This document shows positions 16,085 to 50,039 of a stretch of 64,000 nt of DNA, piece after piece. The stretch lies in NCBI GenBank assembly GCA_001599295.1, contig BCGN01000008.1, forward strand, positions 1,178,001 through 1,242,000, given 5' to 3'. This DNA is from Sporopachydermia quercuum. Lineage: Eukaryota. The translations under genes and the position numbers were made by a program. The notes beneath the pieces are model-generated. The model did no database searches. It saw only the letters and a program-made list of their open reading frames with translations, and had not been told where the DNA came from. Each line of letters begins with the position of its first letter. Position 1 is the stretch's first letter.

Positions 16085-17314
16085 ATGACAGAACCATCCG
16101 AGCAATCGGAACAGCAGACCCTGGAAAATATCCCGAATGGGGAGAAATCTGGTTTTGAGAAACCTGGTTCTTGTGTAATGCCAGTTAATACTGATCCCGA
16201 ATCTTCCGAGATATCAGACAGCATCCACTCTAACATGTCTTCTCCACCAACACCACCACTAGAACCGGAGCGGGAACAAAAGCAAAAAGCAGATGCAGAG
16301 CCAAAACGTGTCTCATCTTTGATCCCCGAGAGTTTAGAAAAAGCTCTTCTGAATCCGCGTGATCGCAGCTTTATTCTTAATTTGGAGAAAGAGATCATAC
16401 TCTTCTTCAAATCTACTTCGAAGTCACATGATCTGCCACCAATGAAAAATGCTTACTACAGACTCTTGGCCCATCAAGCAGCAGACTATTACCGACTTGG
16501 CCATACTGTTAATGTTCATGAATCAACAATCACTGTTTTCAAAGCTGCTCCAAAACAGAATGGCAATGTGCATCCAAAATCTCCTGTTTACGAGCCAATT
16601 CCTCAATTGTATGCCAAACCATGCGATCCGCTTGATTTCAGGATCCAAAGACTGTACAAAGTGGTACCCAAAGACGATTTCAATCCAAATCCATATCCAA
16701 TAAACCCTCAAGTCGTATATTTGTTTCCTCCCCCAGCTTCTCTGACAGCCTATCCAGGTGCTGGAACAACAGGTGTACCTACTACTGTTGGTTTGCCAGA
16801 TATAACGGGAGCTGATTTAGAGTTGAAACGAGCTCAGAAACAAGCAGCATATAATGAAGCTCGTGAACGTATATTTAAAGATTCTCCGTCAGAAGAAATT
16901 GGTATCGAGAATGCGGAATTAGATTCTCCAGGTTCTGAAATACCCGAAATATCTTCGGTCTCATATGACGCATCATTTGATCGAAACACTGGTCAGTACT
17001 TAAATCCTGCAGGATATTACCCAGTCAATTTGAACTTTGTCCCATATTCTTCGGATTATGTCCCATTTTATGCGTACGCAGCACCAGGCACCAATGCTGG
17101 TGGTGCAACGGGTATCAATTATGGAGGTTACAATAACTATAGCTATGCACCGCAATACTTTCCGCGGCCGTTCGCTCACACCAGTGGTTCCCGGAGGTAT
17201 AAGAAACACAATGGAAACTATCAATCGAATAACCGGAAACATTCGGATGACAGAAGCCAGCATAATCATTCCGAGGAAAGGAATAAACCAGAATTGAACA
17301 AACCTTTGAACTGA
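16085..17314 (+). CDS. RBS1: R3H and SUZ domain RNA-binding protein (Rbs1-like)
   Basis: LLNPRDRSFILNLEKEI...NAYYRLLAHQAADYYRLGH (R3H) and KQAAYNEARERIF (SUZ), followed by a Y/N/G-rich tail. Confidence 0.8.
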   Translation: MTEPSEQSEQQTLENIPNGEKSGFEKPGSCVMPVNTDPESSEISDSIHSNMSSPPTPPLEPEREQKQKADAEPKRVSSLIPESLEKALLNPRDRSFILNLEKEIILFFKSTSKSHDLPPMKNAYYRLLAHQAADYYRLGHTVNVHESTITVFKAAPKQNGNVHPKSPVYEPIPQLYAKPCDPLDFRIQRLYKVVPKDDFNPNPYPINPQVVYLFPPPASLTAYPGAGTTGVPTTVGLPDITGADLELKRAQKQAAYNEARERIFKDSPSEEIGIENAELDSPGSEIPEISSVSYDASFDRNTGQYLNPAGYYPVNLNFVPYSSDYVPFYAYAAPGTNAGGATGINYGGYNNYSYAPQYFPRPFAHTSGSRRYKKHNGNYQSNNRKHSDDRSQHNHSEERNKPELNKPLN

Positions 17315-19412
17315 GTTTGTTCTTGAAGCATTTCGCATATAATAAAACCTAATGATAAGTAAAGCAATGACGACATGGTAAATAGAGATAATAATGATGG
17401 GTTCTGTATACGTGTATATTCAATATATATGTGCGCATATGAAAGACAATGACAATGATGGTATTGGTGATGCTATTGCTACTATGATAGTATTATGTAG
17501 GTCTGAACCTAGGTTTGTAGCATGATGCAAGCAAAATGGACTGATGTGTNTTCGTACTTTGGATTTAGAGACAATGACAAATATTAGTAAACTTACAATA
17601 AAAGAAGTAAATAGGTTTTGATTCTTGATTTAAAAGTATTGTGGAAGTGGAAAATACTTAAATCAAATTCGATTAATCAACTGTATGGAATTTATTTCAC
17701 CTTTAAATTCTCTATTGCTCTTATTCTTTTTTCCAATCTGTATAATCATTGGTATCCCTTTTCACATTCTTCTGGTGTATTTGGTGTTATGCTGATTCTT
17801 TTTTTTCATCACCCCATATGATCTAATCGTTTTTGTTTGGGAAGTCCTTTCATAACACTCCAGATTCGACTGATAAAACCGTGAAAATGACCCTTTAGTT
17901 CTATTGTAGTCCTTTTGATGCAATCGTTAACTGCAAGCTGAGCAAAAGTTTTATTATCTTTGGCAGTGTCCAAACAGCTTTGGAGAACAAATAGACTCAT
18001 TTCCTACTATATTCCTATATTCTTACTGTTATAGGAGATCTATCTTCAAGAAGGTGCTACATATACCTAAAGTAAGTGCAAACTAATACGGTCAAATTCA
18101 TTAATGGAAAGCCTAAAAAATTTGTCTCTAGGTAAATATATCTCAAAGAGTCAATTAATTTACAAGATATATCAGTTTTAGAAACTGGAAGCAAGTAGCT
18201 TTTGAAAGCATCTCATCCTGACGGATTGAGAAGAGCGATATGATTCCAACGCTTCCCATTATATCCATTCAACATTTTTCCTTCCTATGAAGAGCAGTAA
18301 CACTATATCAAAAGCCTCTTTAACATACAAGGATAATAACAATGAAAAAGTCCTACTCTCCTCCTATTCTCCAATACCTATAACCTCACTATTGCTATTA
18401 TTGATTATTCCACCTACAAATTATTTACGATCGTTGTTTTATTATCTTATCAGTTTGTGATTCTTTTCTTGATGGAACAGGGCCCTGTTTTGAGACTGAA
18501 TATTTTGAAGTGTTTGTTTTGTTGGCAGCGTAATTTGTAGAACATAATATATTGCATTATGATAGAAATGAATAAATAATTAGTCAAACTTGTCTAAAAT
18601 TGGTTGAATGGAAATTGTGCTTGGTGAGAACAAAAAATAATATGTTGAGATGACGAAGGAAGGAATAAGTAGTAGTAGACAGAGAAGTTCAAGATTAACT
18701 AATTAGAATGGAACATCCCGACAAGAGTTATGGATATGTAATGGTATTTTTGAGATGCTCGTGGCTAGTCAATTAGAGACATCTAGTATTGTTCAATTCC
18801 GCGAACAAATTTATTGCTAGGTTGGCTGTCACTAAAGCAAAATTGTGTTATTATTCCGCTTATTTATCTTTAATGGTACGAATTATCATTCATAATGATT
18901 TAAATAATGAATTGCTTTGAATTCACAACGAATTCTTGGTCCTTCACCTTTTGTTCATCTTCGTNGAAATGATGTTCGAAAATAGTCTTTTTTAATTTTC
19001 CTCCTCTGATCCATCTAATTCCGAGCAATACTAATAATAATTACTCAAATGTAAAATGATACTGTTCGAACCGATGCTATCAGTTTGGTGGCCTCCATTG
19101 TTTCGATTTCGAATCAAACCTGTCTTCTCGTGGATTATTCTCATCATATTATCCCTAATTATTTCCTGAATCTTACAATCAAGTACCAACCCTTAATTCT
19201 TATCATTACTTTTTTATTAGTATATTATCTATCACCGATCCAGTATTAAAACAAAATAAATTAACAAAAAAATATATCTATCTATCTCTTCGACTCACGA
19301 AAGGAGTTCTTCCATCATTCATCATTATATTACATTAAACATCATCAGTCTTCATTATTCATCAACTAATCACCAATTCAAGCACGAAGCCGAACATAAT
19401 CACTCACGGTTT

Positions 19413-21886: not shown

Positions 21887-23618
21887 TTGGATGGATGATT
21901 TCAGGAATGGAGAAGATATATGAACTATGACGAAACTGTAATCATTGTTCGAAAATAGTGGTGATGGTCTATTGAGGCAATTATTACTAGTACCAAACCC
22001 AAACTAAAGACTGCCTAGAAGAAAGGAGGGAATGAATTAGCGAGTATGCGCAGTAGATGATAGTTGAATCAAGTTAGCCTTATCAAACAATCAAAGACTT
22101 TGATTATAACACACGGACCGATGAATATAATATAGAGCCTCACTTTTATCATGCACTGAATTGCGGGATTGGANGGAAGGAATTTATCTCTACCGCAACC
22201 GAGAAGATATCATGTATTTTGTTTTTCTCTCCTCATACGAGTTCATCTAGCATGTGAAAGACAATATGATTTGATATGCTGATAATTGCTATCCACTATT
22301 CTTTTTCAGGAATGAAACCAACCCATTCACAATCACCGAATCACTTCTTACTTTCCTAGCCAACAATCCGAGATCCGACAGGGCTATTCAATTCTCACCT
22401 TCGCTAAACAGTATAATCACATCAAGAATACATGTCTAGTGACTCATCTCATAACAGAGTCGATGTAGAAATGTTACATCCCAGGAGTCTGAAAATGATC
22501 GTAATTAGTCTGAATAGGCTCTCGGATGGAACATTTATCAATAAATAATCAACTACATAAGACCATACATGTTACTATCAATAACATTTTGAACCATAAG
22601 AAAGAATCAAATACCATTGTCCTTTCATTGCTTACAACGCACAAGGGCATTCTACTGATTTGCAAAACATAGTATTGAAGTACTACATTCAAGGACATTC
22701 TGCACAATTAAGTAATTGAACATACTGAAAAGAACACCCTTTTTGAATAAGGCTAAAGCTAAATTTGACATAAAAGAAAAGTTCATAAGCAAAACACTTC
22801 TTCTTTTGGATATAACAAATATTACAACCAAAAAAAGGCCCTTTATTATCATCCAACATACATGTCACTTTTGAATGATCTATCAAATGTATTAAAAATT
22901 TAAAATATTGTCAAGTTAAATAACATTATTTTTCATGTTTTCTTTCTTTTCTGAATGATAACATCAAAGCAGTAGGGCATTTCCTTCCACTCCGGTCAGA
23001 CTATTCCCGAGCTTAATCAAAACCTTAATTATCATCAGATTCGGTATAAACCTTATGTGTAATACGGAGAATCTCTGTTAAACAGAAGTTCATTTCGCTC
23101 TTTGGCAAGAGGGGAAAGCAGTTAGCACCTTAATAGAACATTACCTCAAGAGGAAATTAGAGCGGGGGTATCGATTTGTAAAATAACGCAGCTTCCCCCT
23201 CAGTTACCTGATTTGGTAATCCATACCACTATCCACACATTCTTATTTAGTCAAGTGTGGCTGTTATATAAAAAAANTTCGTGGCTCAGAGACTTGGTCT
23301 ATTTCCTCTCACTCACTACATCTCTGTATTAGGAAACTACGGGTATTACCTTTCATACAAACAGATGATCAAACCAAATCATTTATATAAAAGTTTTGCA
23401 TTTCATTAAATCATCTATCTTTTATTGTTATTGTCCGTGCTATTGTTATTATTATTACTATTACTCCTTCTTTTCCTTCTCAATAATCGTTTGTATACAT
23501 GCAATGATATTTTCATTCAAAACCCACCTAAACCATTTTCCGTTTTCTACTACGAAATTCCTTCTTTTTATCATGTCCTTTTTCATTACTGTTGTTTGTA
23601 TAACGCATATTTCATGCA

Positions 23619-26540
23619 TTAATACTGATATTCATTATTAAAATATCCGTTATTCATATTCAAATTCATCTTTTGACAATTGATTCCCATATAATCATTA
23701 GTGTATCCTCCAAAATTTGATTCGGCAATCCCACCGTTATCGCTATTTGATTCATAATTATCTCCATATCCGAAATTTCGGCCATAGTTCTGTTGAGGGG
23801 GGAGCCCTGCCAACGTTCCATTAGCTTTATGATGCCCATGGTTATTCTGATTATGAGTATGATGATTATGACTATGATGATGCTGATGTTTATTGGCCAT
23901 TAGTTTTCCATTATTACCAGCCGTAGCACCGCTTCTTGATCCGAGTCCTAATTCTTCTAATAATCGTTTATATCCGTGTGGTAATCCATTTCCAAGTTCA
24001 TTTATTCCTATTTTGATTTGAGCCACAGCTGGAATCCGAACAGCATCTTCCAAATATGGCGTAGTTATGAGTTTATANAGAAATGTTGGTCCTTGGGATT
24101 TATCACGAAGGATTCTCTGCAGTAAGATTGTTGGTTGATTTTCTGGATTTCCGTCTAAATGAAATAAACATCGCAATATGCTGTCCCGAGCTTCTGATCC
24201 GTTCCGGTGGCTGATAAGCTTTAGAATTGTCAAGTTACCTAGTTTATGTGTACATAGGTAATCCAGATAAGGTTGCAACTGTGGAGCAAGCAATTGCGGA
24301 CGCAGTTCTAACGTGCAAGTATCTAAATACCAGGTTAGAAGTAAGGCTCCGTTCGGATCAGTAGCTAAATGTGTGGCATGCGAAACAATTACCGCGGCTA
24401 TTTCTGCTTGTTGAGTTTTGGTAGCATATGACGATTCCAAACAAGCCCGGATAGCCCGAGCACCGAACCGTCCCCGGGAAATCTCTATAAAATGAGCCAT
24501 GATGGTTTCAAAAAGGAAATCATTCCACGGCTGACCAAATTTCAAACATACTTGCAGAACATAATTTCCAAATTGATCATTGAAAAGTGGCACAGTGAAT
24601 TCCTTTAATGATTCAGCAATGAGCCACTTTTCTCTGCCACTCTGTGCCACACCTACTATTTTCTGGGCTGCCCAAGTTCCGTTTTTATGAATTCCGATTT
24701 GCCCCATATGTGGTGCAATATACTTGAGCATTACTGACTTTATCGTAGTTGACGCTCCATCGAAAAGCTTTTGAACTACAGTGTTTCCTATATAGTCACT
24801 AGCTAATTCAGCTATTTCATCTAACATCAAAATGGCAATTTCTTCCGTTTCTTCCTTTCCGATACTTCCCGCATCAAGTCGCTTCCGAACTTCTCTCAGG
24901 TAAGGAGCATCGAACACTTTAATTGTACTGACTTCACTAGCCGGAGGTATTTCTTTTGGTTTCGGAGTTCTCAAAGCACGGAAAACTGCTTTAGAAATAA
25001 CCAAGATTTCTTCGGAATTCAATCCAAATTCTGAGCTGATTTCGGTAATTTTAGGGCTAATTTCTTTTAAAGTTGGAGCGGTTGGAGGCACAGAAATAGG
25101 CACCAATTCTGCGGGTGCGGAAACAGGGATTTGTTGCGGTAACTGTGGTTGAGCGGAAGTGACAGGTTCTTCCCGAGACTTCGGTACAACTCGGGCAAAA
25201 GCTATAACCATGGGTTCCGTACTAGGGCTCAATTGGGTATGGGACAATGCTACTTTGGCCTGCATAGCGGCATCAATTGAATCAAAAGTAACCAAAGCAC
25301 AATCTCGGGACTGTACAATAATCAACTCTTTAACGTGTCCATACAATTGGAAAACCCCCGCCAAGGCTGCTGCTGATTTTCCGGGTGGAACTGGTCCAAA
25401 ACATAACGTTGTTTGTGGTCCCAAGGAAGGATCCGCTAATGATGTAACAAATGTAAGTCCAGAGTCCGTCAAATGGCTTTCTGGACGCTCCACAAACTGA
25501 TTCTTCGTGGATTGTACTGCTGACACTCCAACAGTTGCAGCACGTGGTCTATGAGCGTCATTAATATGACTGTGTCCCAAACCGGGAGGAATACTTCCGA
25601 TAGGTCCCATTTGAGATTGAGGTAGGAAACTACCATTTTGAGACGGTGGAGGAAGGTTTGTAGAAGCAGTGGAAGACATTTCAAAGTACCCTACAGGGGA
25701 CTCAATGGATTCGGCTAAAGTTGGTGGGGTAAGGATAGCTGGATGGTGCAAATACGAGGCATTAGCTAGAGCATTGTTTGTTGAATAAGATCTGACTCTA
25801 GTGCTAGAGGATACTTGGGTACCCATTTGTTGCCCTACTTGTGGCACCACTTGTTGACTTATTTGTGATCCGTTGCTAAGTCTCATTTTGGTTTGAAAAT
25901 CATTAGAGAGACCACCTAGACTTTCAGGGGAAGTCCATAAACCAGAGGTAGATCCGGACCCAGCACTTGGAACCAAAGCAGGCACAGAAATTGAGCCCAG
26001 AGAAGCTTCAGGAAGAGTATATAGACTTCCTGACCGAAGTCGAGACACCTGGGTGGCGGCAACATCGTGGTAATTCTCCAATAAGGTACCCGAAACACCA
26101 GAAGACCCACCGATGGGTGAATACAAATGACTGGCCGAAGAACTGGATGCGGAAGATGTAAACTGTTCCGAGTTACTTGAGTTTGAATAAGGAGTTGATC
26201 CAATAGATCCTAAAAAAGAAGGAGATGCCGAGACGGAGTTCGGATACAATTGGCTTTGCAACCCAGGTGTACTGAACCGAGACGGCAGAGTTCCAGCTCG
26301 AGTTCTTCGTTTTGGGTCCAATTCTGATCCAAGTCCCAGGGTTGGAATTCCTTGAAGACCGATTAACGGTGGAGTTGGTGATGGTTTATTAGAAAATGAG
26401 AACCGAGAGCAAGACGGATGAGACGGATCGGAAGAATGGGGAGCTAAAGCGGGTGAGCCGTTGAGACTNGAGTCTTGACGGATGTAAGAAGCATAATTGC
26501 TTGATAGTCCGTCATTATTTATATTTTCCATTGGCGTCAT
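23619..26540 (-). CDS. JSN1: Pumilio-family RNA-binding protein with RRM (Jsn1/Puf1-Puf2)
   Basis: RRTRAGTLPS motif; RRM (TLCFGPVP...CALVTFDSIDAAMQAK); PUF repeats (ELASDYIGNTVVQKLF, HKNGTWAAQKI, DQFGNYVLQ). Confidence 0.92.
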   Translation of the reverse strand: MTPMENINNDGLSSNYASYIRQDXSLNGSPALAPHSSDPSHPSCSRFSFSNKPSPTPPLIGLQGIPTLGLGSELDPKRRTRAGTLPSRFSTPGLQSQLYPNSVSASPSFLGSIGSTPYSNSSNSEQFTSSASSSSASHLYSPIGGSSGVSGTLLENYHDVAATQVSRLRSGSLYTLPEASLGSISVPALVPSAGSGSTSGLWTSPESLGGLSNDFQTKMRLSNGSQISQQVVPQVGQQMGTQVSSSTRVRSYSTNNALANASYLHHPAILTPPTLAESIESPVGYFEMSSTASTNLPPPSQNGSFLPQSQMGPIGSIPPGLGHSHINDAHRPRAATVGVSAVQSTKNQFVERPESHLTDSGLTFVTSLADPSLGPQTTLCFGPVPPGKSAAALAGVFQLYGHVKELIIVQSRDCALVTFDSIDAAMQAKVALSHTQLSPSTEPMVIAFARVVPKSREEPVTSAQPQLPQQIPVSAPAELVPISVPPTAPTLKEISPKITEISSEFGLNSEEILVISKAVFRALRTPKPKEIPPASEVSTIKVFDAPYLREVRKRLDAGSIGKEETEEIAILMLDEIAELASDYIGNTVVQKLFDGASTTIKSVMLKYIAPHMGQIGIHKNGTWAAQKIVGVAQSGREKWLIAESLKEFTVPLFNDQFGNYVLQVCLKFGQPWNDFLFETIMAHFIEISRGRFGARAIRACLESSYATKTQQAEIAAVIVSHATHLATDPNGALLLTWYLDTCTLELRPQLLAPQLQPYLDYLCTHKLGNLTILKLISHRNGSEARDSILRCLFHLDGNPENQPTILLQRILRDKSQGPTFXYKLITTPYLEDAVRIPAVAQIKIGINELGNGLPHGYKRLLEELGLGSRSGATAGNNGKLMANKHQHHHSHNHHTHNQNNHGHHKANGTLAGLPPQQNYGRNFGYGDNYESNSDNGGIAESNFGGYTNDYMGINCQKMNLNMNNGYFNNEYQY

Positions 26541-29240
26541 GCCACAAAATTGGTTCTCGGAGCTAATGTTTGCGAGTTGTGTTTGCGTCTATGTTTATTA
26601 CTTGGTTTGTCGATTGTGACCTGTGATGAAAGTTTGATCTTTCTTTGTAAGCTGAATGAGCAATTATAATTATGATTGAAAAAATGATTGAAATAAGCCA
26701 CAATTAATGATGAGTAAAGCTTCGAATCACGACTATCTTTTTATGCAACGCTACGTATGATTTAGTAATCCTGTTAGATTAATGAAAGTTGTCAAAGCGT
26801 ATACTAATTCTATTTCAAAAACTGTTTTTTTTTTCCTTCGTTTTCGAAAGAACGAGCACTTGTTCTAATTCCATACACTTATCATCCATTCACAAAATCG
26901 GATTTGTGGAGGAAAAGAACACAAATAGGCTTTATGAGGCAGTGGAAACTCAAAGGGGGTAGTCTGAGAGACTTTACTCAAGCTGATTTTAATGTGGGGA
27001 AATGGGACAAATCGTCAAAGTTTGGGTTTTTCCAACGATAGGGAGAGTTTTGGGACAATACAAGTAATCCATATGACGTAGCTGCTGTAGAAGATTAACC
27101 ACATGTTAGCTTGTTTAGAAGTTATACGTGTGGACAATTGATAGAAATGATTATTAATGATTTCAAATTTAATACATAATCTTTGGTTGTCTATAAGTCA
27201 CTCTGATGAGTTTCAAAGGGATTTGATTAATCGCCGGGATCCGATAGCATCCGAGTATCCCGGATCAACTGAAGGGCAGACAAGGTAATAACTTTATATC
27301 AATATTATACTTGTTCGAGAATTGTCCAGCATATAAAGATAAGAAGGTACAAGGGACCATGGGCGATATGGATGTATTAGAGAAAGGTTCATCAATAGAG
27401 AAGTNCGCAGTATTAATGCTTGAAAACCCATAATATAATAATAATCAATGATAGAAAAGAATTAGATCTATTGAGCACACCGTACCTATAATTTTCTTAT
27501 ACCCCCTTTTTATAGCGTAATCTGATATGTATGTAATTCATCTCTTCTTAACTAAGGGGGCTGTACTTTGAGATCTCGTCCCTCTTGTCCAAGTGTCCCA
27601 GAACACATGCACCTCAATAATGCTCACTCATTATAATCCGTACAGTTGAACAATTCCTAGGACAACCAAACATATCTGAGCATCCCTTACCTACAGACAC
27701 AAAATTCCAGTAAAAAGAGGCGCAGAGAAGAGAGGAATGAAGACTGGATGAGCAAACTTTGTATAACTTACTTTCATACGGATTGTCATGTATTTTGTCT
27801 TATAAATTCCAATTGACAGCACAAGCAGATGTGGGCAGTCTTGGCTTTGATTTGTGTAATATATACTGAGATGTAATTAAAACGAGTAGGAAAGCACATT
27901 TCTAAAGATAAATAAGAGGTAGGATTAGATGATCTGATAATGAGATATTCATTTCAAACCTATTATAAGAGCCAAAAGTTGACATACAAGTTGCATTGCG
28001 CGGAAACAAGCGGACCCTATTTGATCATGTGACATATATCAAGAGCAGTGAAGACCACGTGACAAACATCTACTTACCTGTTTTCCTGTTGTGTCAGCCA
28101 AACGGAGCTCATTTCGGATGAACCGAGATTTTATCCGTTCAAATATAAACCTAAATTTTGTGTAACCGTTTCAGATATTAGCCAATAATCCAATCAGGAC
28201 TATCAGGTACTTGCCTTACTTGGTAAGTTGATTTGATACTGATCAATTAGATAGACCAACAGTCAATAGGTATGAAGTGCACAACCGGAGGACATCAGCC
28301 AGTTTTGAAGAAACCTAAGAACTTGTTATTACTCCTGTAAATTGTTTCATTCTCACCAGTCTCCAAACGCGAACTGCAATATCGATTTATTTAAATATTC
28401 ATAATCTGAAGTCATCCAAATCCAAATCCAAATTCAAGTCCACATATTTCATACTTAGTGTTCGTACTATTAGCGTAAACGTGGTCAAAATATAGATAAT
28501 GGTTCGAGAATTCTTAGCCTCAATGAATGATTAGGTAATTAATTTGGTTGTTCAAAATAATGAGTATTCTATTTTCAGTTATTTTTACTTATTTCTTATG
28601 AATTGTCGATGAATAGAAGAATTGATGAATTGAAAAAACAAGTTTGAATGATCCTGGACTCTGTAGTTTGTTCCGGTTTCTAATTTCTTTGATGCCATAA
28701 ATACCGCTGCTATATTTGTTCAGTGATTCTATTTGCTGGTACCAGTTTCAATACGGCAGAGTAATAGTAAACTCATGCTAGATTCGCACTAGATTTCATA
28801 GTAACGAAGTAATATAGTGATGCTAGTTCCCATAATCCTCTAATCTCATAATAATAAGCAGATAATGAACTGAATTATTGCTAGTAACTGATTGGTTCTT
28901 GATCGTGCTTTCTTTCGCTTTATTTATTGTATTTCCATCAATTGAACCAGATGAATTGAATTATTCGAACAGCATAGTAACTAAATAAATAGTTGATTGA
29001 AATTCCACACTAGTTGTTGCAATAAGAAGAAGAAAATAAAATACTCCTATGATAATAACGGTAACAGTAATACCTGTCATAGTAGTAACATCCTAAGAAT
29101 CATAGTTACTGCTACCATTCGAACAACTACCGAAATAAACTTAGCATAGTAAAACAATTATTCTAATAGCTAAATTATCAGACTTACTTTTAAAGCACGG
29201 TGTTTTCAATTCAATCCATTTCCCATTCTTTCATATCTTC

Positions 29241-30250
29241 TCATAGAAATGTCCTTGATAGAGTAATTCCAGTTGCTATATTATGAACTCTGCCATCAAT
29301 TGCATATCCTTCTTTCAGCAAAATTTCTATTGTTTCTGGTAAAGATTTCAATGAAGCTATAATAAAAATGGGGTTGTTAGTATATTATTTCCGGTTTGAA
29401 AGAAGAATTAATAGAGTAACTGGTAGTATTACTGGTAGTATAACTGGTAGTATAACTGGAAGTAAGCTAAGAAAAAGGTTGAACACCTGAAAAGATAGTA
29501 ATACATACTGGAAAACACTTCAATGAACTCTCCGTCTTCAAGCTCAGTATGTCGATTTTGGTTCCGAGAATCGGATAGATCAACATCCACAAAAACGTTT
29601 AATAAACTAGTGTTACAAAATCCCGGATCATTGAATGCTACTTCACCGCATTTCCGGACCGTTCCGATGAATCCTGTTTCCTCCCTGAGCTCTCTTATAG
29701 CACAATCAGCATAACTTTCGCCCGGTTCAAGCAATCCCGCCGGTATTTCAATGCATACTTTATTCACCGGAGGTCGGAATTGCTTTTGGAGAATGATTTT
29801 GGGTTCCGAAACTTCTTTAATTATAGCTATAATACCAACGGCTATTTATTGTTAGTAAATAAGTAAGATCTTTATTGGAACGAAATTTCGGAGGAAATGC
29901 CGATCTAGGCACAACTCAGATAAAATATTTGAGCTTTACTTACCATCAACAGAGCTTCCTTCTGTTCGGGTCTTCCGAGATCCGAATTCCCACCATCGGT
30001 CTCGTCCTGCAGGATCAATATATCGGATTCTTTCAATCTTAATCCATTTCGAGTCGGTACTTTCTAATGGTTCTGTTGCTACGACATATGCCTTTTGTAA
30101 ATCTGCTTTACTCATTTTGATATCCGAGAAAGTTTCTTCTGATTCTGAAGATGCCGCTTTGCTTCCGAACCCTCGGATAGCTGTTTTACGCAACCCTGCC
30201 ATATTAGTCCATCTCAGATGAGACAATATCCCGTTAGTGCTTCTGAACAT
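29241..30250 (-). CDS. YSA1: ADP-ribose pyrophosphatase (Nudix), 3 exons
   Basis: Exons 30250-29944, 29841-29509, 29356-29241. Introns GTAAGT..TACTAAC..TAG (102 nt) and GTATGT..TACTAAC..TAG (152 nt). QFRPP...EIPAGL...AIRELREETG Nudix box; C-terminus GYAIDGRV. Confidence 0.93.
29417..29464. repeat. 12 bp tandem repeat (TAACTGGTAGTA) x4 inside YSA1 intron 2
   Basis: Units at 29417, 29429, 29441 and 29453 with single substitutions. Confidence 0.9.
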
Positions 30251-30670
30251 ATCCAGTCTCTCCAAAAACGGCTACAATATTACCAAATAAAGCTCTGCTT
30301 CAAAAACAGTAGTATATGTGTTACTTGCCGATCATCAAAGCTTTCCCCACTTGTCCCTGGTGTCAAAAGAAGAACCAAAATGCATCATTGTGAAGTCATT
30401 ATTGAATGATTACATAATTTAATTTGAGTCGTAGAACTGGGTTAAACTTTTATGAAAGGAGACGTGAAATGAAAGTATATTTGAAATAAGTACTCTTTTT
30501 ACATCATTTCCGTTTAAGAGATTCCGGAATAAAATTTCTTCCGCTGATATNAGACATCATGCACAATTTCGGTTTCTTTTCTTCTTTAGAGAGAAATCTC
30601 GGAAAGTGTTGAGACTGAGAACCTTAAATCTTATAAATTTGCATTTTCTAATACGTTTAATTCACTCAAA

Positions 30671-31906
30671 ATGCCGTCAGAAGTTGTGCAGCTTGACAAT
30701 TACAGCCGACTGGGCAGAAATTTCTATTTGGGATTAGGAATGGAAGGTTCGGCCAACAAACTCGGAATAGGTATTATTCTACATCCGAAGGGTCCGCTGG
30801 ATCCGAATAATCCCGAAGCTAGAGCTATTGTACTTTCAAACATCCGAGATACTTACGTTCCACCTGCTGGTGAAGGTTTCCTTCCTAGAGATACGGCCAG
30901 ACATCATCGGAATTGGGTAGTTAGAATTACCAAAAGAGCTTTAATACAGGCTGCAGAGACTCTCGGAAGTAGCCGCCCAGAATTTCAGAACCTTATTTGG
31001 GCTCCTGACGAACCTAATTTATTCGCAAATCCCAGCCCGATACTTGCTCCGAGCTCATTAGACTGCATATGTTTCACCCAAGGTCCCGGAATGGGTGCCC
31101 CACTTCAATCTGTGGTAATGGCGGCGCGGTGTCTTTCCTTAATGTGGAATTTACCCCTCGTTGGGGTTAACCACTGTGTGGGGCATATCGAAATGGGCAG
31201 GGAAATAACCAGAGCTGCAAACCCGGTGGTTCTATACGTATCTGGTGGTAATACTCAAGTTATAGCTTATTCCAAGAACCGATATCGGATATTTGGAGAA
31301 ACTCTTGACATTGCGGTCGGGAACTGTTTAGACCGTTTTGCCCGGACGTTAGGAATTCCGAATGATCCAAGTCCCGGATTTAATATTGAACAACTGGCTA
31401 AAAAGGGTAAGAAGTACTTGGAGTTGCCTTATACAGTTAAAGGCATGGATTTATCGATGTCGGGCATTTTAGCTTATATAGATGGAATAGCGTCGGCCAT
31501 ACTACCCAATTTGGGGTCCTGTCGGAAAAGTACGGTTCCAAATTTATCTGAAATCTCAGAACAATTCACACCGGAAGATCTTTGCTTTTCGTTACAAGAA
31601 ACCCTATTTGCTATGCTTGTTGAAATCACAGAAAGAGCCATGGCTCATGTTGATACAAACCAGGTGTTAATTGTCGGAGGTGTTGGATGCAACGAGCGGC
31701 TACAGGACATGATGGAGCTGATGGTTCGGGATCGGAATGGAAGTGTATTTGCTACCGATGAGAGGTTTTGTATTGATAATGGGTTAATGATAGCACATGC
31801 TGGGTTGCTAGGATATCGGACGGGATATCGGACCAAGATTCGGGATAGTGTTTGTACTCAGAAATTTCGGACAGATGAGGTTTATGTGAAATGGCGGAAT
31901 GATTAG
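30671..31906 (+). CDS. KAE1: tRNA N6-threonylcarbamoyltransferase (KEOPS subunit)
   Basis: [70 protein letters not shown] motifs. Confidence 0.97.
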
Positions 31907-32549
31907 GTAGAAGATTGTGTCCGATTGCCGAACGGAGGGGATCCGACTGGATCCGATGGTAGCTAGTAGGAACAACTATATAGTGATTTTAAACTTTCGC
32001 GATACCGAAGAAGATAACGGATAGGAAAATTGTAATTTCACTACGTGTTCCGTTATTATAGGACAAATAGCGGAAATAATAACAAGAGATTGTCATAAGA
32101 CGGAAACCATATTAATGACTTATTCGGATTTTGGATTCTTCACATTAGGATCGCTACAACAATAAGAAATTAGATTTATTACGTTATGGATATATATTAA
32201 TGCTAAACTAATTCACACCATTTCTGCTTTCGTAGACAAGTAAGTCAAATTTGACTAAATCTTTCTGTTTGGTTTTCGATACGACCCAATAAGGGAGATT
32301 GTGCCTTTTCACTCAAAACTCAACCTACTTTTTCAGTATCGTTTCTTATATGTTGAGGCAACTTTGCTACCTTAACCGGAAACAGATTGAGTTACTTTTC
32401 ATCATATCTTAATCCTAATAATTTCCATAAGAAGAAATGTCTTCTATCATGATCACTCAGTTACCATTTCCAGTATAGAATGCTAAATCTTACTTCCCGG
32501 ATCAAATCTTAACAAACCCAAAATCCTCATCTTTTTCTTGAACTCTCAC

Positions 32550-34735
32550 CTATTGTTTCCGACTCATTATTAGCGTATTCAGGAATTTGTGGCCCAGGAG
32601 TTCTTGAGCCGTGGCTCGGTTGCGAAAATCAATCACAAACGTCCGTTTCAGGAAATCCCGACATTCTTCTGTACATTCCGGTGGAATCTCTGGCGTTGCT
32701 GAAGACGTACCGATCCGAAATATCGCCTGCATTTGACTGTAATCTGGAAAAGGATGCTTTCCTGTAAACATCTCAACTATCAAACATCCCACGGACCAAA
32801 TATCGGCTTTTAGCGTATACACTGTTTGCTTAATAACTTCGGGAGCCATCCAAAACACGGAACCCTGCAAAGAAGCCCTTCGGCCAGATTTTAGGTTATC
32901 GGAATTAATCTTCTTACTGATTCCAAAATCAGTAATCTTCACTCCGCCTTGGATATTTATTAGTACGTTTGCGCCTTTAATATCTCTATGCATAATTCCC
33001 TTTTCATGGAGATAGTTCAAACCTAAAAGGATTTGCCGAACAAAATTCCGGATTAACGGCTCTTCAAAGGGACCGTAATTACTAAGCATGCTGGCCACAG
33101 AGCCTCCCGGAACGTATTCTAGGAAGATATTCAGATGGGTTTCATCCGTGCTTGAGCCTAAATAACGAACAATGTTCTCATGGTGGAGGTCTTTCAGTAT
33201 ATCCATTTCTCTCTGTAGGGCTTGTATCATAGATTCATTTTTAAGATTAGCCGGGATGGAAACGGAAGAGATGGCGGAAGAAGAAGTTGAGCCGTCGGGA
33301 AAAGACGGAAGCTGTACACATTTAACTGCCATTAATTCACCAGTAAGAGCGTTCATGCCGAGGTAAACTTCAGAATAACTACCTGAACCAATAAAAGCAC
33401 CTTTGATCCATTTTTTAGGGCCTTTGAGTCCTTCCCAAAAGGCGTCATTTAAAAGATCTTCTTCCGACACAGCGTCTTCAAAGAGTTCAATTGATGCGGG
33501 GTCGTCTTCCGCGTCGGAGATGACAGAAAGACGGGAAGAAGTTGCTCTTGAGAGTCTAGCAGCAGAAGCTGCAGTGGAAGTTGCCGCCACTTCCTCCAAT
33601 TCGGAAGCTTTAAGGATCATGTAATCGCCGATTGTGTTAATAGTGCTAGTGTCAGAATTAACGGAATTGTATGTCATTTCACTCAAAATAGACGGAGGCC
33701 TATTAGCGGAATGATTAGAGATAGAATTTTGATTACTATGTCGAAACATCCGAGACATTCCGATGGAATATCGGACAGAGTTTCGGATAGTCTCCCGGAG
33801 CTTCTTCCCTTCAACTTCGGGGAAATATTCGGCTAGGTTGGATGAAATAAGTTCCGATGGAGGTCTTTGGCCATAGAAAGAACGGATGCCATCTGTTGAG
33901 CCGGTTTCTGTGGTTCGAGATANAGCGGAAGCGGACTTGGATCCAAAAGCCGAACCCGATTCTATCCGCCGGGAGGCTGCTAAAGCTTCCGGAGTCGGGA
34001 AAACATCCGATTTACACAGTATTAGGCGGTTCCTTTCCTTCCGATCCGTTGAATGGCAGACGGTGATCAATTCAATATCGGATAACCTCCGTGGTTGGGA
34101 CTTATCTGTGGATGAGTTTGTGGCCGTTGTGTCGTAAACAAATATAGATAAATCATCCGCAGGTACTATTTCCGCCATTGCCCGCTTGATTGACTCTCCG
34201 TTGAAAGTATTAGCCACATTGACATTCCGAACTGATCCGTCCGCCAAAATCACCCGAACTGTATTTCGACGTACTTGAGCCATGCTCATAACATTAGCCG
34301 ACCCGAGATAACCTACGGAAGCACTTTGAGTTTTGATTCGACCACTGGAAACTAATGGTTTAGGCTTACTGGAACCGGAGGTCAGTTTGCCGTTTCTGGA
34401 TTCAAGTTCCGACTGTATTTCTTTAGTGCGAAGTTTATTTGCCGCTAATAAAAGTCGAATTCGGTCTCCGACACAGTCAATGCCGAGTTCTTTCAATGCT
34501 TCCCGATCGCAATGGGGAAGCAGATCGGAAGTGACTTCGTTTTCTGGGAGGAATGAATTTTAAGTTAGAAGGAGTTCTTTCCGGAAATCGCCCAAATAGG
34601 AATACTACCCACCAAAAACAGTAATCGCTTGTCCCTGATTAAGTAATACACTAACGAAACTGAGAACATACCAATGAAGTTTCGCTCATATTGTTCACAA
34701 TGAGCGGAGACAAGAATGTGATGCAAAGGTTCCAT
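32550..34735 (-). CDS. STE11: MAPKKK with SAM, Ras-association and kinase domains, 2 exons
   Basis: Exon1 34735-34672 (MEPLHHILVSAHCEQYERNFI), intron 34671-34544 (GTATGT..TTCTAAC..CAG), exon2 34543-32550. SAM domain (LKELGI..VGDRIR), FYGQRPPSELISSNLAEYFP, kinase RASLQGSVFWMAPEV. Confidence 0.95.
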
Positions 34736-35185
34736 TTTGTGGTCAACATTACACCAGATTGAGTGTAGGCTATGTCTGAATAGGAAATATTACCGAGATG
34801 CAACTACGGAAATTTTCTGGGCTGTTCTGAAGGCCTTGGTAGTTCAAGAGCTCAGATCATAAGATCGAGATTGTAATACATAAAAACTATCTTTAATGAT
34901 GTGTATCATATTTGAGTTTTGTGATCCTTTGTTTCAAACTCAAACTCAAACTCCAAATAAGATTTAAGGTTTATCTCTTGATTACACAACTTCAAACAAA
35001 CCTTACACTCGCAATAAGGATTTAAGATTTGTTATGCCTTTCGCAAAGCCACAACTAGATGTGGCTCATAGGGAACTCGGCTATATATATCTTTTATTAT
35101 AAATACAGTTTTGGTCCAATTATATTAGCTATATACCTCTATGCATGTACCTGCACTACTATTGCATTTAGTAGCCAATAGCCAC

Positions 35186-36850
35186 TTATTTTTTTGATCT
35201 AATCATGATCGGATCATAGCTTTTCACTTTGTGGCTTTTCCCTCCTAGAGGGTCAGTAAGGTTAAATCCTGCAGGATTAGGCGTGGCAGTATAGCTTTTT
35301 GAAAGAGGTGCAGCACTATGGCTTAGTGAATCATTTCTACGATCATCAGATATTAACCGATACGAACTGACAAAAATCCCACTACCAAGAATGGGAACTG
35401 CGCTGGAATTAAGGTTGGAAAAGCCCCAAGATCGGTCAAAAGCTAACGGAGGATCGTCCACTCGGGGTCGGGTTGAATCTAGTAAGCTTGTACCGTACGT
35501 TAATCTATTTGAAGTCGAGCCTTCGGTACAAGGAGACCGAATTTCACTATACAGACGGGGTTGCTGCGGAGAATATCCGGTATAATTGGAAGTGGATTCG
35601 GCAACTAAATTGTTTAAGCTGTGCCGAGATCCGATATCAATTCCGCTATCTGTGTTTGTTTGGAATTCCTCAGAGGATTGCCTTGTCAATTGTGGTTGAT
35701 CCGTCGTTGCTGTGGCCGCAGTAGATGTGGTTGATAGTAGAAAAGCTGATTCCGCTTCTTCTACGTAAATTTCTTGCTCCCTTTTCAAGTTCTGTGGGGA
35801 ACTAGTAACTAAATACACTCCGCAAAACGTCAATAAACAACCTGAAGAGAACTCCACCAATTGGATACCCGTTTTGTCCTCAAAATCTCGGTAAATCAAT
35901 CCCGAAGCTAACATTACCGATAGCGTGAAGAACGTGAAATGCACGGGAATAACCGTAGTTGATCCAAATATCTGTAACACTCTATTCAGATATTTTATTT
36001 GTAGCACGGCTGTTACTATAGCAACCATTGCTAATAGATAGAACCTAAAATCGGTAACGGAAACCCAAAAATTAAAGCTAATTAATGTACTAAGTGCTTT
36101 ACTGGAAATGGCTGTATATGCACCAAAAATAGCAACTGTCACTAAATCTATAATCAGAAACATAGCTCCTGGAGTTTTCGTATTCTGCGATTGTAACTTC
36201 GGATGATAACTCCGAAGCTGTGATAGAAGTATGATGAGTAGGGAAACCGTCATTACTACGTAAGCTCTGCATTGAATTGTGTTGAAAGCGGAATAAACCC
36301 AGTCAGGATCATTTGGAAAGTTGCCATGGTTCGGATCAGAAGAGGAGTTTCCGGAAGATATTAGAATTAGTAATATTCCTAGACCAGAAAAACTCACTCC
36401 GAGAATATCCACACAATACACAGATTCGTTAAATATTAATGGAGCAATAACACAGTTGGATATTATAGTTACTACACCTAAAGGGGAAACGACGGAAGCG
36501 GGGGCAAAACCATAAGCAACAAAGTTTCCGATTTCACCCATAGTCATCAGAATCATTCCGAACCACCATAATCCGGATTTCAAATAAGGTTCCGATTCAT
36601 AGGAAGCCTCGACTTCCGTCTCCGTTACTGGTCCCGTTATTGGCACCGGCTTGGGTCGAGACAACATTTGATGGGCATACCGTTGAATATTTATAGCAAA
36701 ACTGATCAAAACATTGCCGATCATAGAGCATAGAACTCCAATGACTATATCCGAATCCCCCGTTAATTCCATGCTTTGATAGATCGGAGATCTGCCCAAA
36801 ATTGTTAGACTTTCGGATGTCTGAAGTGAAGATATGCTTGTCGTAGTCAT
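35186..36850 (-). CDS. NIPA/DUF803 family magnesium transporter
   Basis: PYLKSGLWWFGMILMTMGEIGNFVAYGFAPASVVSPLG, QIKYLNRVL and VIPVHF motifs; multiple TM helices. Confidence 0.9.
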   Translation of the reverse strand: MTTTSISSLQTSESLTILGRSPIYQSMELTGDSDIVIGVLCSMIGNVLISFAINIQRYAHQMLSRPKPVPITGPVTETEVEASYESEPYLKSGLWWFGMILMTMGEIGNFVAYGFAPASVVSPLGVVTIISNCVIAPLIFNESVYCVDILGVSFSGLGILLILISSGNSSSDPNHGNFPNDPDWVYSAFNTIQCRAYVVMTVSLLIILLSQLRSYHPKLQSQNTKTPGAMFLIIDLVTVAIFGAYTAISSKALSTLISFNFWVSVTDFRFYLLAMVAIVTAVLQIKYLNRVLQIFGSTTVIPVHFTFFTLSVMLASGLIYRDFEDKTGIQLVEFSSGCLLTFCGVYLVTSSPQNLKREQEIYVEEAESAFLLSTTSTAATATTDQPQLTRQSSEEFQTNTDSGIDIGSRHSLNNLVAESTSNYTGYSPQQPRLYSEIRSPCTEGSTSNRLTYGTSLLDSTRPRVDDPPLAFDRSWGFSNLNSSAVPILGSGIFVSSYRLISDDRRNDSLSHSAAPLSKSYTATPNPAGFNLTDPLGGKSHKVKSYDPIMIRSKK

Positions 36851-37606
36851 TATAGTAGATTATGGCAGATTTCCATCATTCTTAGCGTTTATTTCGACTA
36901 AATTCGATGATATATTATGAGAAAGAAAATGAATACTGAATGCACTGATTTCCGTTCTCGGCAGAGTTTCGGAATATCTAAACTAAATTTTTACTTCTTC
37001 ATAAGAGTTCAAACCTTCTTTAATTGCATATCTTACTTAAAAACAGAGAATTGACCCTCTGTTTAATATACATCAAAGATATTACCGGTGATTAGTGACA
37101 AGAAATGTTAGCTCACGGAGATTTAGATCAGATATTGATAACGGAAATAATGAGATTTTTTGGGTATTAAGATTAAGGTTCAAGTATTTTTGAGAGTAAG
37201 AAAGGGCTCATGCACCTCTTAGCTAGAGCTTAAAGTGTAATTCTTTTAATAGAAAACAACCTAACATAATAATAGATAGATTAACAAGTGTAATATATAA
37301 GGTGGGTGAGTCTGGTGAGCATTGTTATCAGAAGAAACCTTTTGATCATTTGCCATTGTACCTTTCAGATATTGACTACTATATGAATATATAAATATAA
37401 GTATAGTCTCAGTTGATGACTGTTATAATACTAGTAATATTTACTAGAGAATGAATTGTTGATTATCTAGTTCTACAGTATTTATTTAAAATAGCTCGTT
37501 ACAAGGCCATTGTTGGAGATAAACCTCGGATATAGTCAGTTTGAACTACAATCTATTTTTTTATCCACCATTCAACCAATAACATTATTCACTACTATTA
37601 TTGAAA

Positions 37607-46634: not shown

Positions 46635-49600
46635 TCAGTCAATGATAATTTTAGGTTGTTTCATGGCACCCCGGTTAAAGAAATCAGTTATAACTTTAAA
46701 CCTATCAGTAGCATCTTCTAATTCCATCTGGAACAAATCATTTCTCTCACTGAGATTCTCCTGTGCTTGTCGTATTGCTCTAATCGAATCTACTTCTGAT
46801 AGACACCTTGGACATCTAGCAACAGCAGCAGATCCATAAACAACTTCTGAATGATAAGAAGACGTTCCTATACCTCCTCCGCTTATTGAATTAATATCCT
46901 CAGAGTATCCCTCGCTCACACATCGCTGATGATATGAATGCCCACAGTTGAAATGAACTACAGGTAAATCAAGAGCAGTTCCACAAGAATTGCAATGAGA
47001 ATTCTGAACTATGATTGGTTCCGTTAATAATCTTTTCACTTCTCTTTCCTTGGCTTCTGTTTCATTCCGATAGTTCTCTGTTAATTGTCTATAATTTTCA
47101 ATTTCCTGAAGATCTTCTTCAATGTACTCAAGGAAATAGTCTTTCACCAGTCCAACAGTTGCTATGTTAGTACTGCTTAATATTTGCAATACTTCTAAAG
47201 GTTGTAGTAAGTTTCTCTCTTTGATGATCTTCAAAGTGTTCAGCACTCTATCTTCTCCGACTTCTGTGAATACTTCTTGATTTGAAACAAAGTAGTCTAA
47301 TGCTAATCCGTGCAATTCAGGTTCATCTTTCCCATATTTTTCTAATACAGCCAAAGCATCTTTAGTATTAGCACTGGCACAACAAGCTCTGAACATATCG
47401 ATTTGGTACCCAGTTTGATCTCTAGCAAGCATTTCTCCATCATCACAGCCACTGAGATTGAACAGTAGCATTAACGTAGTAGTATCCATGGATCCCTTTA
47501 TATCCTGTCCAAGTTTTTTAGCTTTCGATTCCCAAGATGCTTTCTCTTCAGGATCCAATGATAGATTAGCATTATTCAGATACATTTCCACCAGTGTGGT
47601 GAGAATATCAAGTTTGTCTTTTTCATTGCCAGCGAATTTGTCATAGCTTTCAACGCATGCCTCCAAGAAGATAATAAACTCATTTGGACGATTTACAAAC
47701 GATGGAAAAATGATCCGAGGCCTCGGAGGATGATATTGTGGCTCAGACACAGGGACCTGGTCTTCATTTTCTTCTGTATTTCGGCTTGCCATATATGAAA
47801 CAAAAGCCCTGTAGCTTTTCAGGACCGGAAACGATGTAACAGTTGAGCTTCTATTATCTCCGGTATAACTATCAGCAGAGTTAATCCCTATATTATTTAT
47901 GTTACGTGATCCAATATCATTTCCGGTTTTCCCATTGATATCTAAATCTCCAGTCTCCGGTTTTGCCTGGTATTTCCCTGTGAATATATCAATCAATAAC
48001 GCTGTGGTTTCATTAGGTAATTGATCAAGTAAAATATAGGCATGTTGAATCAATATCCGCAGCGTATCTTCAACTCCCAATGTTTTAATAAATCTTATGC
48101 ATCCTTTAGCATTCTTCAAGTTTCTTAACTGAATATCTACCGCAATACCTGGCTCCCCGTATTTCTTAGCTAATTCATATGCCTGTTGGAAATACATGCT
48201 TTGGCGACATAAATCAATCACCACATATAAATCAAACTCTGCATCTTTCATGTCCCGTCTGATAAACTCTTCCAGTTTACTTACTTGCTTTCCTTTACAA
48301 TAGCAATTCAATAGGAGTGTCACATGATCTTTGTTTGCTTCCCCAGCTTTTAGCAGGCTTTCTAAATACCATGTTAAATTCTCCACCTGTTGAGAATCTC
48401 GATACCGCAGAATAACTTCATTGCTATTCCCTAAAGGTATAGTTTTAACATACTGAGCCATTGCAGGAACATATTCTTCAACATCATATAAATGATCAGC
48501 ATACTGTTTTCTAATTTCAAGCTGCTTTTTTTTTGGCAGGTTATTATTCCTAGCAAACTGCAAGGCCATATCATATAAATTTCGTTGTAAAAGAATTGCT
48601 AATTTGGTTTCAAATGGCTTTTCATGTAATCTATAAAGGATTCCGTTTGATCCGAGAATATGTAAATCTCCCCAAAGATAGAATACCCATCTAAGAGCAT
48701 CTAAAACTTGTCCGCTGTATCCAATATATGAATACTCAACATTGACAATGCTTATACTAATCGGTCTTGCAACTGTTGAACTTGTATTGCCGGCAGAAAG
48801 CGGAGAAGATAGAGAAATAGATGATTCTTGATTAGCCGAGATTTTCCCATTAGTAATCAAAACAAGATCGGACGTGCTCTCAGACGCATATACCAATTTC
48901 TTCGGAACATCGTATACATATTCTCCTGTTTTCTGAGCTGAAGTATAGTATGTAATAGTGTCTTCGCGTGCCACTACTAATTCTTGCGTTTTCGGTAGAA
49001 TAGTACAGCATCCGACATCGCAACCTTTACTATTTTCTAGAATCATGTCCGGCTTGCCTTGATTTCGGCCCGATGTCCCAACAGTAAGAATCTTAGATGT
49101 AGTTGTTATATACAATAATAATTGCCGGGGATCCTCTCGGAACAGCAAACCTGTCACGGGTTCAGGACTTTCGTATATGATTCTTTGCCGAGATCCTCGG
49201 TCTCTAATTATATCCCCTCTGATCAAAATAACCGTTCCATTAGCATAACCTAAAGCTAAAGTAGAGAAATCCTGAGAACAGCCAAACGCTGAAATTGGGT
49301 ATTCATTTTTGTTATTATTCACCGATACTGAAGCGTGGAACTTATACTCATCAGCATGATGCTTTAACAATCGGTCAAGATCCCACAATTTAATTACAGC
49401 TGGATGCCCTTGGCGTTCTCCGACAGTACATAAAAGCGGAGTATTCGGGACATCCGCTATATGAATCACCGAATAATCTTCGGAATAAACGTGAACAGAA
49501 GCTTCAATTTTTAGGTCTTTATTCACTATTCGGATTTTACCGGAGTCATATCCCAGTACTAGGAAATCTTTAACAGGAGCTACTGAACTTAGCTCTGGAT

Positions 49601-49691: not shown

Positions 49692-50039
49692 CTTTATCAG
49701 TACTCGTTTCCTTATGATAAAAGGCATACAACGATGTATGCCAGATGTCAACTACTGACTGCTGATATTCACTGACAATTCTCTACTAGCTAGAACACTT
49801 TCTAGATGAAACTATACAGAGTTGCCATAAGATGAGTTGTATTCAGTTGGATGGTTCAAAGTATTATTGATTTGTATAAACATAAATAATCAATGAACGT
49901 CATCTAACAAATATCAATGCAATCAAAGTATGTAAAGAAATAGGGATGGAGAAGAGACGTAGGAGCTTTCGCAAATTTCCCACGTGACATAATTCATATT
50001 TATGATTATATAATCACAAATCAAAAAGAGTATAAGGTC

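Follow-up and report, generated by a model that had tools for sequence, protein, structure and literature searches.

What makes one short DNA word accumulate in some genes of a yeast chromosome while neighbouring genes stay at background? The question is raised by a 64-kb window of Sporopachydermia quercuum (assembly GCA_001599295.1, contig BCGN01000008.1, positions 1,178,001 to 1,242,000; 36.8% G+C), in which a first-pass annotation had pointed to patches rich in the trinucleotide CCG and its complement CGG. We analysed this single window, by which we mean the whole stretch with positions counted from its first letter, together with a panel of distant fungal loci.

A single double-stranded word written into patch coding DNA

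Patches were drawn by a threshold on CCG/CGG density, giving six main patches with a total length of 17,850 bp (Table 1). They hold 520 copies of the word against 356 in the remaining 46.15 kb, a 3.8-fold difference in density that is circular, because the patches were chosen on that same count. Tests in 600-bp windows are independent of how the patches were drawn. Here CCG/CGG has a variance-to-mean ratio of 6.03, the highest of the 32 strand-symmetric trinucleotides, followed by ATA/TAT at 3.77. On the plus strand CCG and CGG co-localise although they are counted at separate positions (Spearman 0.59, or 0.49 without CCGG): plus-strand CGG (CCGG excluded) stands at 6.88 copies in windows of the top plus-strand CCG quartile and at 1.86 elsewhere. 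Other complementary pairs do not behave in this way (CCC/GGG 0.07, CCT/AGG -0.36). The approximate hand counts that first drew attention to this DNA matched our recount exactly, with 37 of 42 CpG dinucleotides in the CCG/CGG context at 33721-34320, 4 of 15 at 56101-56700 and 6 of 16 at 39001-39600. Eight of the last nine arginine codons of KAE1 are indeed CGG, and the five further patches named at the outset are dense, at 21.8 to 34.1 CpGs in this context per kb versus 7.0 outside patches.

CpGs preceded by C or followed by G occur at 26.1 per kb in patches and 7.0 outside, whereas the remaining CpGs stand at 12.4 and 12.9 per kb. Total G+C is 0.409 in patches compared to 0.352 outside; once the bases of the motif are excluded these values become 0.356 and 0.338, a small residual difference that arises plausibly because patches contain more coding DNA. 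On a log2 scale the patch-to-background ratio is 1.92 for CCG/CGG, and the next trinucleotide made of C and G, CCC/GGG, reaches 0.82. After removal of overlaps with the motif, CCC/GGG, GCC/GGC and CGC/GCG are raised only 1.2- to 1.4-fold, and for trinucleotides that avoid the motif the difference stays within about 0.5 log2.

The same selectivity is seen in codon usage. Arginine is written as CGG in 72 of 242 codons in patches and in 11 of 251 elsewhere, and proline as CCG in 66 of 274 and 13 of 205, respectively. G- or C-ending codons unable to form the motif (GAG, AAG, CAG, CTG, TAC, AAC, CAC) are unchanged; for example, patch and other frequencies are 0.26 and 0.28 for GAG, 0.30 and 0.38 for AAG, 0.36 and 0.37 for CAG, and 0.29 and 0.28 for TAC. 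At fourfold degenerate sites that follow T and are not followed by G, the frequencies of A, C, G and T are 0.26/0.14/0.24/0.37 in patches and 0.27/0.13/0.22/0.38 outside. Fourfold sites between C and G, in contrast, carry C at 0.20 in patches versus 0.09 and G at 0.23 versus 0.11, and between G and G the frequency of G is 0.21 versus 0.02. The main loser at fourfold sites is T, which gives way both to C and to G. The excess is therefore context-specific, as had been claimed, since only CpGs in CCG/CGG rise and fourfold sites outside its reach are identical in patch and background. General GC-biased gene conversion, or membership of a cluster of genes with raised G+C at third codon positions (GC3), is rejected on the unchanged codons and identical fourfold sites.

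A pyrimidine is preferred before CCG and a purine after it, giving Y-C-S-G-R (Y, pyrimidine; S, C or G; R, purine), with TCCGA/TCGGA as the best form. In patches TCCGA has 114 copies compared to 43 outside, a 6.8-fold difference in density; CCCGA is raised 6.6-fold and ACCGT 1.1-fold. TCCGA and TCGGA are mutually complementary, and the word is therefore a five-base pseudo-palindrome, T-C-S-G-A. Words one step away give a mixed picture and no clear precursor: the neighbour depleted most is AGG/CCT (log2 -0.38 relative to composition), TCTGA/TCAGA number 50 in patches and 130 outside (log2 0.0), and TTCGA/TCGAA 19 and 94 (log2 -0.94).

Neither local G+C nor protein sequence accounts for the excess. 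This loss of the excess on correction, and an equal rise of other CG- or GC-containing trinucleotides, were the two outcomes that the first-pass annotation had set against its claim, and neither occurred. Corrected for G+C, the observed-to-expected ratio is 1.7 to 3.0 in open reading frames (ORFs) of patches and 0.25 to 1.0 elsewhere. When each protein was re-encoded with the codon usage of non-patch genes, all ten patch ORF segments exceeded expectation (1.66- to 4.20-fold, z 2.8 to 11.6), compared to 0.24- to 1.60-fold (z -2.3 to 2.0) in the 13 other ORFs, and amino-acid composition is thereby rejected as the cause. Patch proteins are richer in proline (5.8% vs 3.9%) and serine (10.8% vs 8.6%) and lower in lysine, aspartate, glutamate and phenylalanine than those of other ORFs. 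This composition fits a push at the DNA level towards CCN, TCN and CGN codons, and could equally reflect more disordered regions.

All three reading frames of patch ORFs are enriched. Synonymous shuffles within genes, which keep each gene's own codon usage, still leave an excess in seven of ten patch segments (ratio 1.27 to 1.44, z 2.2 to 4.1); therefore the order of codons forms the word across codon boundaries. On the coding strand CCG and CGG are found 219 and 259 times. The first-pass annotation had argued that translational codon selection is not the cause, and we agree: it is rejected on the enrichment of three frames, the excess over synonymous shuffles and the enrichment of non-coding spacers in the largest block of patches. 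Two structural origins were likewise rejected. A CCG/CGG tandem repeat would place motifs at distance 3, and only seven such pairs occur in the 17.85 kb of patches; insertion of the word is countered by normal protein lengths, KAE1 having 411 amino acids and yet 48 motifs. The word arose by base substitution, mainly at synonymous sites, in all frames and in both orientations.

No preferred spacing of words was found at distances of 3 to 60, where pair counts are flat in all four orientations, and CCGG (distance 1) alone stands out. Arrays of paired half-sites for Zn2Cys6 (Gal4-type) proteins are rejected, since neither spacing nor orientation is fixed over this range. A search for nucleosome-scale or helical periodicity and for a regular array of words, of which the nucleosome scale had been proposed as a check, returned nothing.

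We aligned STE11 with 60 homologues and scored the codons touched by the motif. Such codons are similarly frequent in the three kinds of column, at 44 of 228 that are conserved and the same in this yeast, 11 of 41 that are conserved but different, and 59 of 271 that are variable; the difference is too slight to bear weight. In three of the 41 conserved columns that differ, lysine is replaced by arginine encoded within TCGGA.

Patches and the limits of genes

Enrichment is restricted to one multi-gene block and to the coding DNA of nine genes, out of some 20 that are recognisable. Before the ATG of the five isolated patch genes (Usp, R3H, PUF, VPS11 and WD40), 150 bp per gene contain 4 words in all (750 bp, 5.3 per kb), whereas the opening 300 bp of their coding sequences contain 46 (1500 bp, 30.7 per kb). 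Three genes are enriched up to the 3' end, with 19 words in the last 300 bp (900 bp, 21.1 per kb) and 1 in the next 150 bp (450 bp, 2.2 per kb). The R3H and PUF genes have motifs up to 13-43 bp from the ORF ends and slightly past them. The flanks can be bare for long distances: the ORF of patch 1 has 506 motif-free bp upstream and 311 bp downstream, the final motif of patch 2 lies 43 bp inside the ORF end and is followed by 565 motif-free bp, and 326 bp upstream of the VPS11 ATG are motif-free. In VPS11 and the WD40 gene, enrichment is limited to the 5' two-thirds. CpG-island-type retention is rejected on the contrast between upstream and early coding DNA, as well as on the equal density of other CpGs in patches and outside.

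The block at 29.4-37.2 kb differs from these. It consists of four adjacent genes (patches 4a and 4b) and is the only place among the main patches with enriched non-coding DNA: its spacers hold 36 words in 2028 bp (17.8 per kb), compared to 196 in 28,176 bp (7.0 per kb) of other ORF-free DNA, a 2.55-fold excess (P = 8e-7) at nearly equal G+C (0.345 and 0.333). Within patch 4a, the spacers 30222-30589 and 31907-32549 have observed-to-expected ratios of about 2.2, and both introns that can be delimited in the block carry 2 motifs each, including that of YSA1 with its GTAAGT and TACTAAC signals. The segment 36851-37250, upstream of the NIPA gene, reaches 2.29, whereas the segment 34801-35185 upstream of STE11 stands at 0.52. 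The proposal that enrichment ignores gene boundaries therefore holds for the large block only, and fails for the five isolated patches, whose edges lie at the ends of coding sequences. Similarly, non-coding DNA is dense in the word, as had been reported, inside the large block and in a small cluster at 27230-27265, and is not so beside the isolated patches.

Two observations lie at the margins of this map. In the non-coding stretches 31930-31960 and 27230-27265, near-copies of GGATCCGA or ATCCGA follow one another in short runs, as if the word had been duplicated locally together with its flanks. The ORF at 57818-58765 on the minus strand has an intermediate ratio of 1.60 (z 2.0), and the classes of patch and non-patch genes may not be fully discrete.

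Table 1. Patches of CCG/CGG and the genes on which they lie. Ratios are observed/expected counts of the word, the expectation being conditioned on the amino-acid sequence, with z in brackets.
Feature	Position	Location or strand	Word content and domain	Ratio (z)
Patch 1	3551..5050	in ORF 3455-5071 (-), universal-stress-protein (Usp)-domain gene	39 CCG/CGG in 1500 bp; Pfam Usp	2.30 (5.2)
Patch 2	15901..17450	on ORF 16085-17314 (+), R3H-domain gene	two segments, 13 + 17 motifs; Pfam R3H	1.66 (2.8)
Patch 3	23501..26700	on ORF 23619-26540 (-), Pumilio-repeat gene	88 motifs in 3200 bp; Pfam PUF	2.30 (8.3)
Small isolated cluster	27230..27265	no long ORF	ATCCGA-type words; 4/4 CpGs in CCG/CGG context	
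Patch 4a (densest)	29351..34800	Nudix/YSA1-like, KAE1 and STE11 genes, short spacers, two introns	204 motifs in 5450 bp	2.13-4.20 (ORFs)
Nudix/YSA1-like gene	exons 29429-29845, 29936-30271	(-), in patch 4a		
KAE1	30671-31906	(+), in patch 4a	Pfam TsaD	
STE11/Byr2-type kinase	32550 to ~34690	(-), in patch 4a	Pfam Pkinase, Ras_bdg_2	
Gap in large block	34801..35400	STE11 upstream region and last ~215 bp of NIPA gene	background density, 0-1 motifs per 100 bp	
Patch 4b	35401..37250	NIPA-type Mg transporter (ORF 35186-36850, -) and ~400 bp upstream	56 motifs in ORF; Pfam Mg_trans_NIPA	2.64 (8.1)
Patch 5	47601..49900	5' two-thirds of VPS11 (ORF 46635-49727, -)	Pfam PEP5/VPS11	5' part 2.56 (7.3); 3' third at background, 0.72
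Patch 6	52751..54150	5' part of WD40-repeat gene (ORF 52593-54731, +)	Pfam WD40 families	5' part 2.26 (5.3); 3' part 0.49

What could write the word

Such a pattern is unusual. In 80 fungal STE11 loci (G+C 0.36-0.59), which served solely as a comparison panel, the CCG/CGG observed-to-expected ratio is 0.67 to 1.02, compared to 2.03 in the large patch, and the share of CpGs in the CCG/CGG context is 0.73 to 1.18 of expectation, compared to 2.0. In a search of the open literature we met no account of such CCG/CGG patches in a yeast. Mutation accumulation in S. cerevisiae and S. pombe places this trinucleotide with the most mutable contexts (PMC4704713). A word standing at twice its expectation despite high mutability therefore needs a positive force, and the arginine CGG excess in addition requires multi-step changes from AGA.

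Several known systems resemble these patches in part. Very-short-patch (VSP) repair in E. coli, which acts through Dcm methylation and the Vsr endonuclease, inflates CCWGG genome-wide; the likeness lies in a short word, variable at its central base, that is over-represented at the DNA level in any frame, which VSP repair achieves by word-biased repair. Its hallmark is depletion of the T-variant of the word. The yeast effect is patchy, however, and in patches the T-variant TCWGA is not depleted, whereas TTCGA/TCGAA is. Vertebrate CpG islands are likewise CpG-rich stretches of kilobase scale in a CpG-poor genome, found at a subset of genes, but they keep CpG in all contexts and centre on promoters, whereas the yeast patches raise only CCG/CGG, spare promoters and exceed expectation. 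Chromosome C of Lachancea kluyveri has a GC-rich introgressed arm, compositionally foreign DNA that alters codon usage in a yeast chromosome; this arm spans about a megabase with overall GC shifted, while the patches are of kilobase size, concern one motif and are bounded by coding sequences. Finally, genes of higher and lower GC3 are physically clustered in budding yeasts from a cause that is unsettled, with GC-biased gene conversion, replication timing and introgression discussed (Cope and Shah 2022, PMC9246145). These clusters share with the patches regional differences in composition between genes, but they comprise a shift of the whole GC3 over up to hundreds of genes, in contrast to one trinucleotide in units from single coding sequences to an 8-kb block. 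We class the pattern as a regional non-adaptive nucleotide bias that falls outside the GC-biased conversion and CpG-island classes and that we do not assign to the VSP or introgression class.

Tentatively, we favour a fixation bias directed at the motif, which would act on the DNA duplex through mismatch repair or gene conversion. Strand symmetry and a pseudo-palindromic context suggest that the duplex is what is recognised, and the random placement and large number of sites argue for a fixation bias over selection site by site. A putative factor that reads CGG would tip the repair of heteroduplex mismatches, or conversion, towards the allele that carries the motif, much as VSP repair inflates CCWGG in E. 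coli. The bias would be limited to places where heteroduplex is frequent and can be extended, which would be the alignable coding DNA of recombination-active genes. Patches would then end where coding sequences end, and a multi-gene block would form where hot genes crowd together.

Several observations weigh against this proposal. The isolated patches step sharply at start and stop codons, to which processes at the level of the duplex are blind, and restricting heteroduplex to alignable coding DNA is an ad hoc argument. Promoters inside or beside patches stand at background density, and no consistent 5'-to-3' gradient was seen along genes. Depletion of the T-variant TCTGA/TCAGA is predicted, and only TTCGA/TCGAA is depleted. 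The motif seems to be supplied by transitions as well as transversions (CCT to CCG; AGA to CGA or CGG), which demands more of a repair bias than correction of T:G mismatches alone.

A more specific version, which we consider speculative and rather doubtful, is that this lineage may possess a motif-directed drive: a CGG reader, whether of Zn2Cys6 type, a VSP-like mismatch endonuclease or a glycosylase, would bias repair or conversion to Y-C-S-G-R despite the hypermutability of CCG. If so, the drive would have recoded arginine and proline codons and nudged protein composition, and would represent a eukaryotic, regionally confined counterpart of bacterial VSP repair.

The patches may instead be segments acquired by hybridisation, introgression or homeologue conversion from a related lineage with a genome-wide CCG/CGG bias, an account of mosaic ancestry that we regard as doubtful. 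The patchwork would in that case record past recombination and no local process. Mosaic ancestry would fit the contiguous four-gene block with its enriched spacers and introns, the breakpoints within VPS11 and the WD40 gene and the absence of an evident common function among patch genes; the codon preferences that have no bearing on the motif do not differ, as expected of close relatives, and patches limited to coding DNA are expected if only coding DNA was similar enough to recombine. However, mosaic ancestry only shifts the question, since the donor would still need a motif-specific force. The motifs 13-43 bp from the ends of the R3H and PUF ORFs, and beyond them, leave no homologous margin for conversion, and a donor with unalignable spacers should rarely recombine, yet six patches lie in 64 kb. 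Among contigs from sequencing runs we found no paralogous copy at least 80% alike for 23001-43000. Isolated N positions in the window number 23 and are not concentrated in patches, which hold four of them.

Selection for the word as a binding site, either of a CGG-reading protein such as a fungal Zn2Cys6 factor or of a chromatin factor on gene bodies, or else selection on the coding RNA, has in our view a low probability. Edges at the ends of coding sequences and restriction to a subset of genes are what this explanation would predict, and the flanks extend the core to a pseudo-palindrome of 5-7 bp (T-C-S-G-A or TTCSGAA), a kind that proteins can read. The three conserved lysine positions of STE11 that are arginine within TCGGA point in the same direction. 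Nevertheless, one site per ~25-30 bp over kilobases amounts to hundreds of very weakly selected sites per gene, and these show no fixed spacing, dyad or regular array. For selection on RNA, messenger RNA segments from patches fold slightly better than their shuffles (mean z -0.84, versus +0.19 for other segments; eight segments each), but this shift is small and the two orientations are about equal on the coding strand. The enrichment of spacers and introns in the large block counts against either form of selection.

Locally altered mutation, in which lesion bypass or repair synthesis linked to transcription or replication creates or spares CCG/CGG, for instance by placing C opposite abasic sites, is unlikely. 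It would suit a DNA-level pattern across gene bodies, the loss of T to both C and G at fourfold sites and the depletion of AGG/CCT beyond other neighbours. The specificity is nonetheless for the product and not the substrate, there is no asymmetry between transcription strands (C and G are about equally frequent at patch fourfold sites between C and G, as given above), the untranslated flanks of isolated genes are unaffected and other gains of G or C are absent.

A cytosine-methylation or CpG-island-like domain, akin to the DNA-modification domain raised by the first-pass annotation and one in which patches would escape methylation or receive it specifically at CCG, is highly improbable: patches are of kilobase size and their CpG observed-to-expected ratio is about 0.92 versus 0.64 outside, but methylation would deplete and not enrich, patch CCG lies above expectation and is not merely preserved, CpGs outside CCG/CGG are equal in patch and background, promoters are not included, and Saccharomycotina have lost all 5-methylcytosine methyltransferases, according to a review (PMC13297926).

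Regional composition in yeasts is usually ascribed to general GC-biased conversion, replication timing or introgression, and here one trinucleotide carries nearly all of the difference between neighbouring genes. Should a motif-directed bias of repair or conversion be true, this would be a natural setting in which biased fixation that depends on context could be studied cleanly in a eukaryote; should mosaic ancestry be true, the word would be an ancestry marker at kilobase resolution. Regional composition differences confound estimates of selection on codon usage (PMC9246145). In S. cerevisiae both CGG and CCG are decoded slowly (abstract of PMC6379720), and patch genes, roughly a third of those in the window, may therefore, under either reading, be translated differently for non-adaptive reasons.

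Genes and other features of the window

The gene content of the window is of ascomycete yeast type. Pfam domains identify Kae1/TsaD, a Ste11/Byr2-type kinase, VPS11, UFD2, a subunit of CCT, a NIPA Mg transporter and PUF, R3H, Usp and WD40 proteins, and introns bearing GTAAGT and TACTAAC signals occur in some of the genes. The names YSA1 and DCR2 are not based on Pfam and are labels that we adopt from the first reading or from gene architecture; "TUP1-like" for the WD40-repeat gene is our guess from its length and architecture. In a large protein collection the proteins closest to STE11 are about 50% identical. The alignment of STE11 that yielded the 80 fungal loci drew them from metagenomes, and none is close (~37-45% identity over full length, at most 61% in the best segment). 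A protein search with UFD2 gave five matches only, the best at 38% identity, which says nothing on ancestry, and a search of a metagenome collection with VPS11 found no relative.

Single contigs of two studies run right across 23001-43000; they show 0 differences and their depth is flat, which rules out an assembly chimera or artefact. The contigs are possibly the source of the window and so give no independent support otherwise. Three DNA records of one organism contain the stretch and none of RNA is listed; one further run matched nowhere and another in short conserved pieces only.

The N letters, 22 single and one pair, include 17550, 33923 and 52315-52316, and their flanks show no tie to CCG/CGG; these letters may be ambiguity codes for heterozygous sites. 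Transfer RNA (tRNA) and Rfam scans of the window found no RNA gene associated with patches. The sole RNA gene is a tRNA-Glu(UUC) at 7154-7225 on the plus strand (ARAGORN, Rfam). An inverted pair of 168 nt, at 41006-41173 and 55110-55277, is 89% complementary. Fragments of this dispersed repeat, which may be a solo long terminal repeat or small mobile element, recur on several further contigs of the same organism. Another dispersed repeat, the short 51-bp stretch 28482-28532, lies in the ORF-free interval 26.6-29.4 kb and has a copy with 7 differences on one other contig in each of two sequencing runs.

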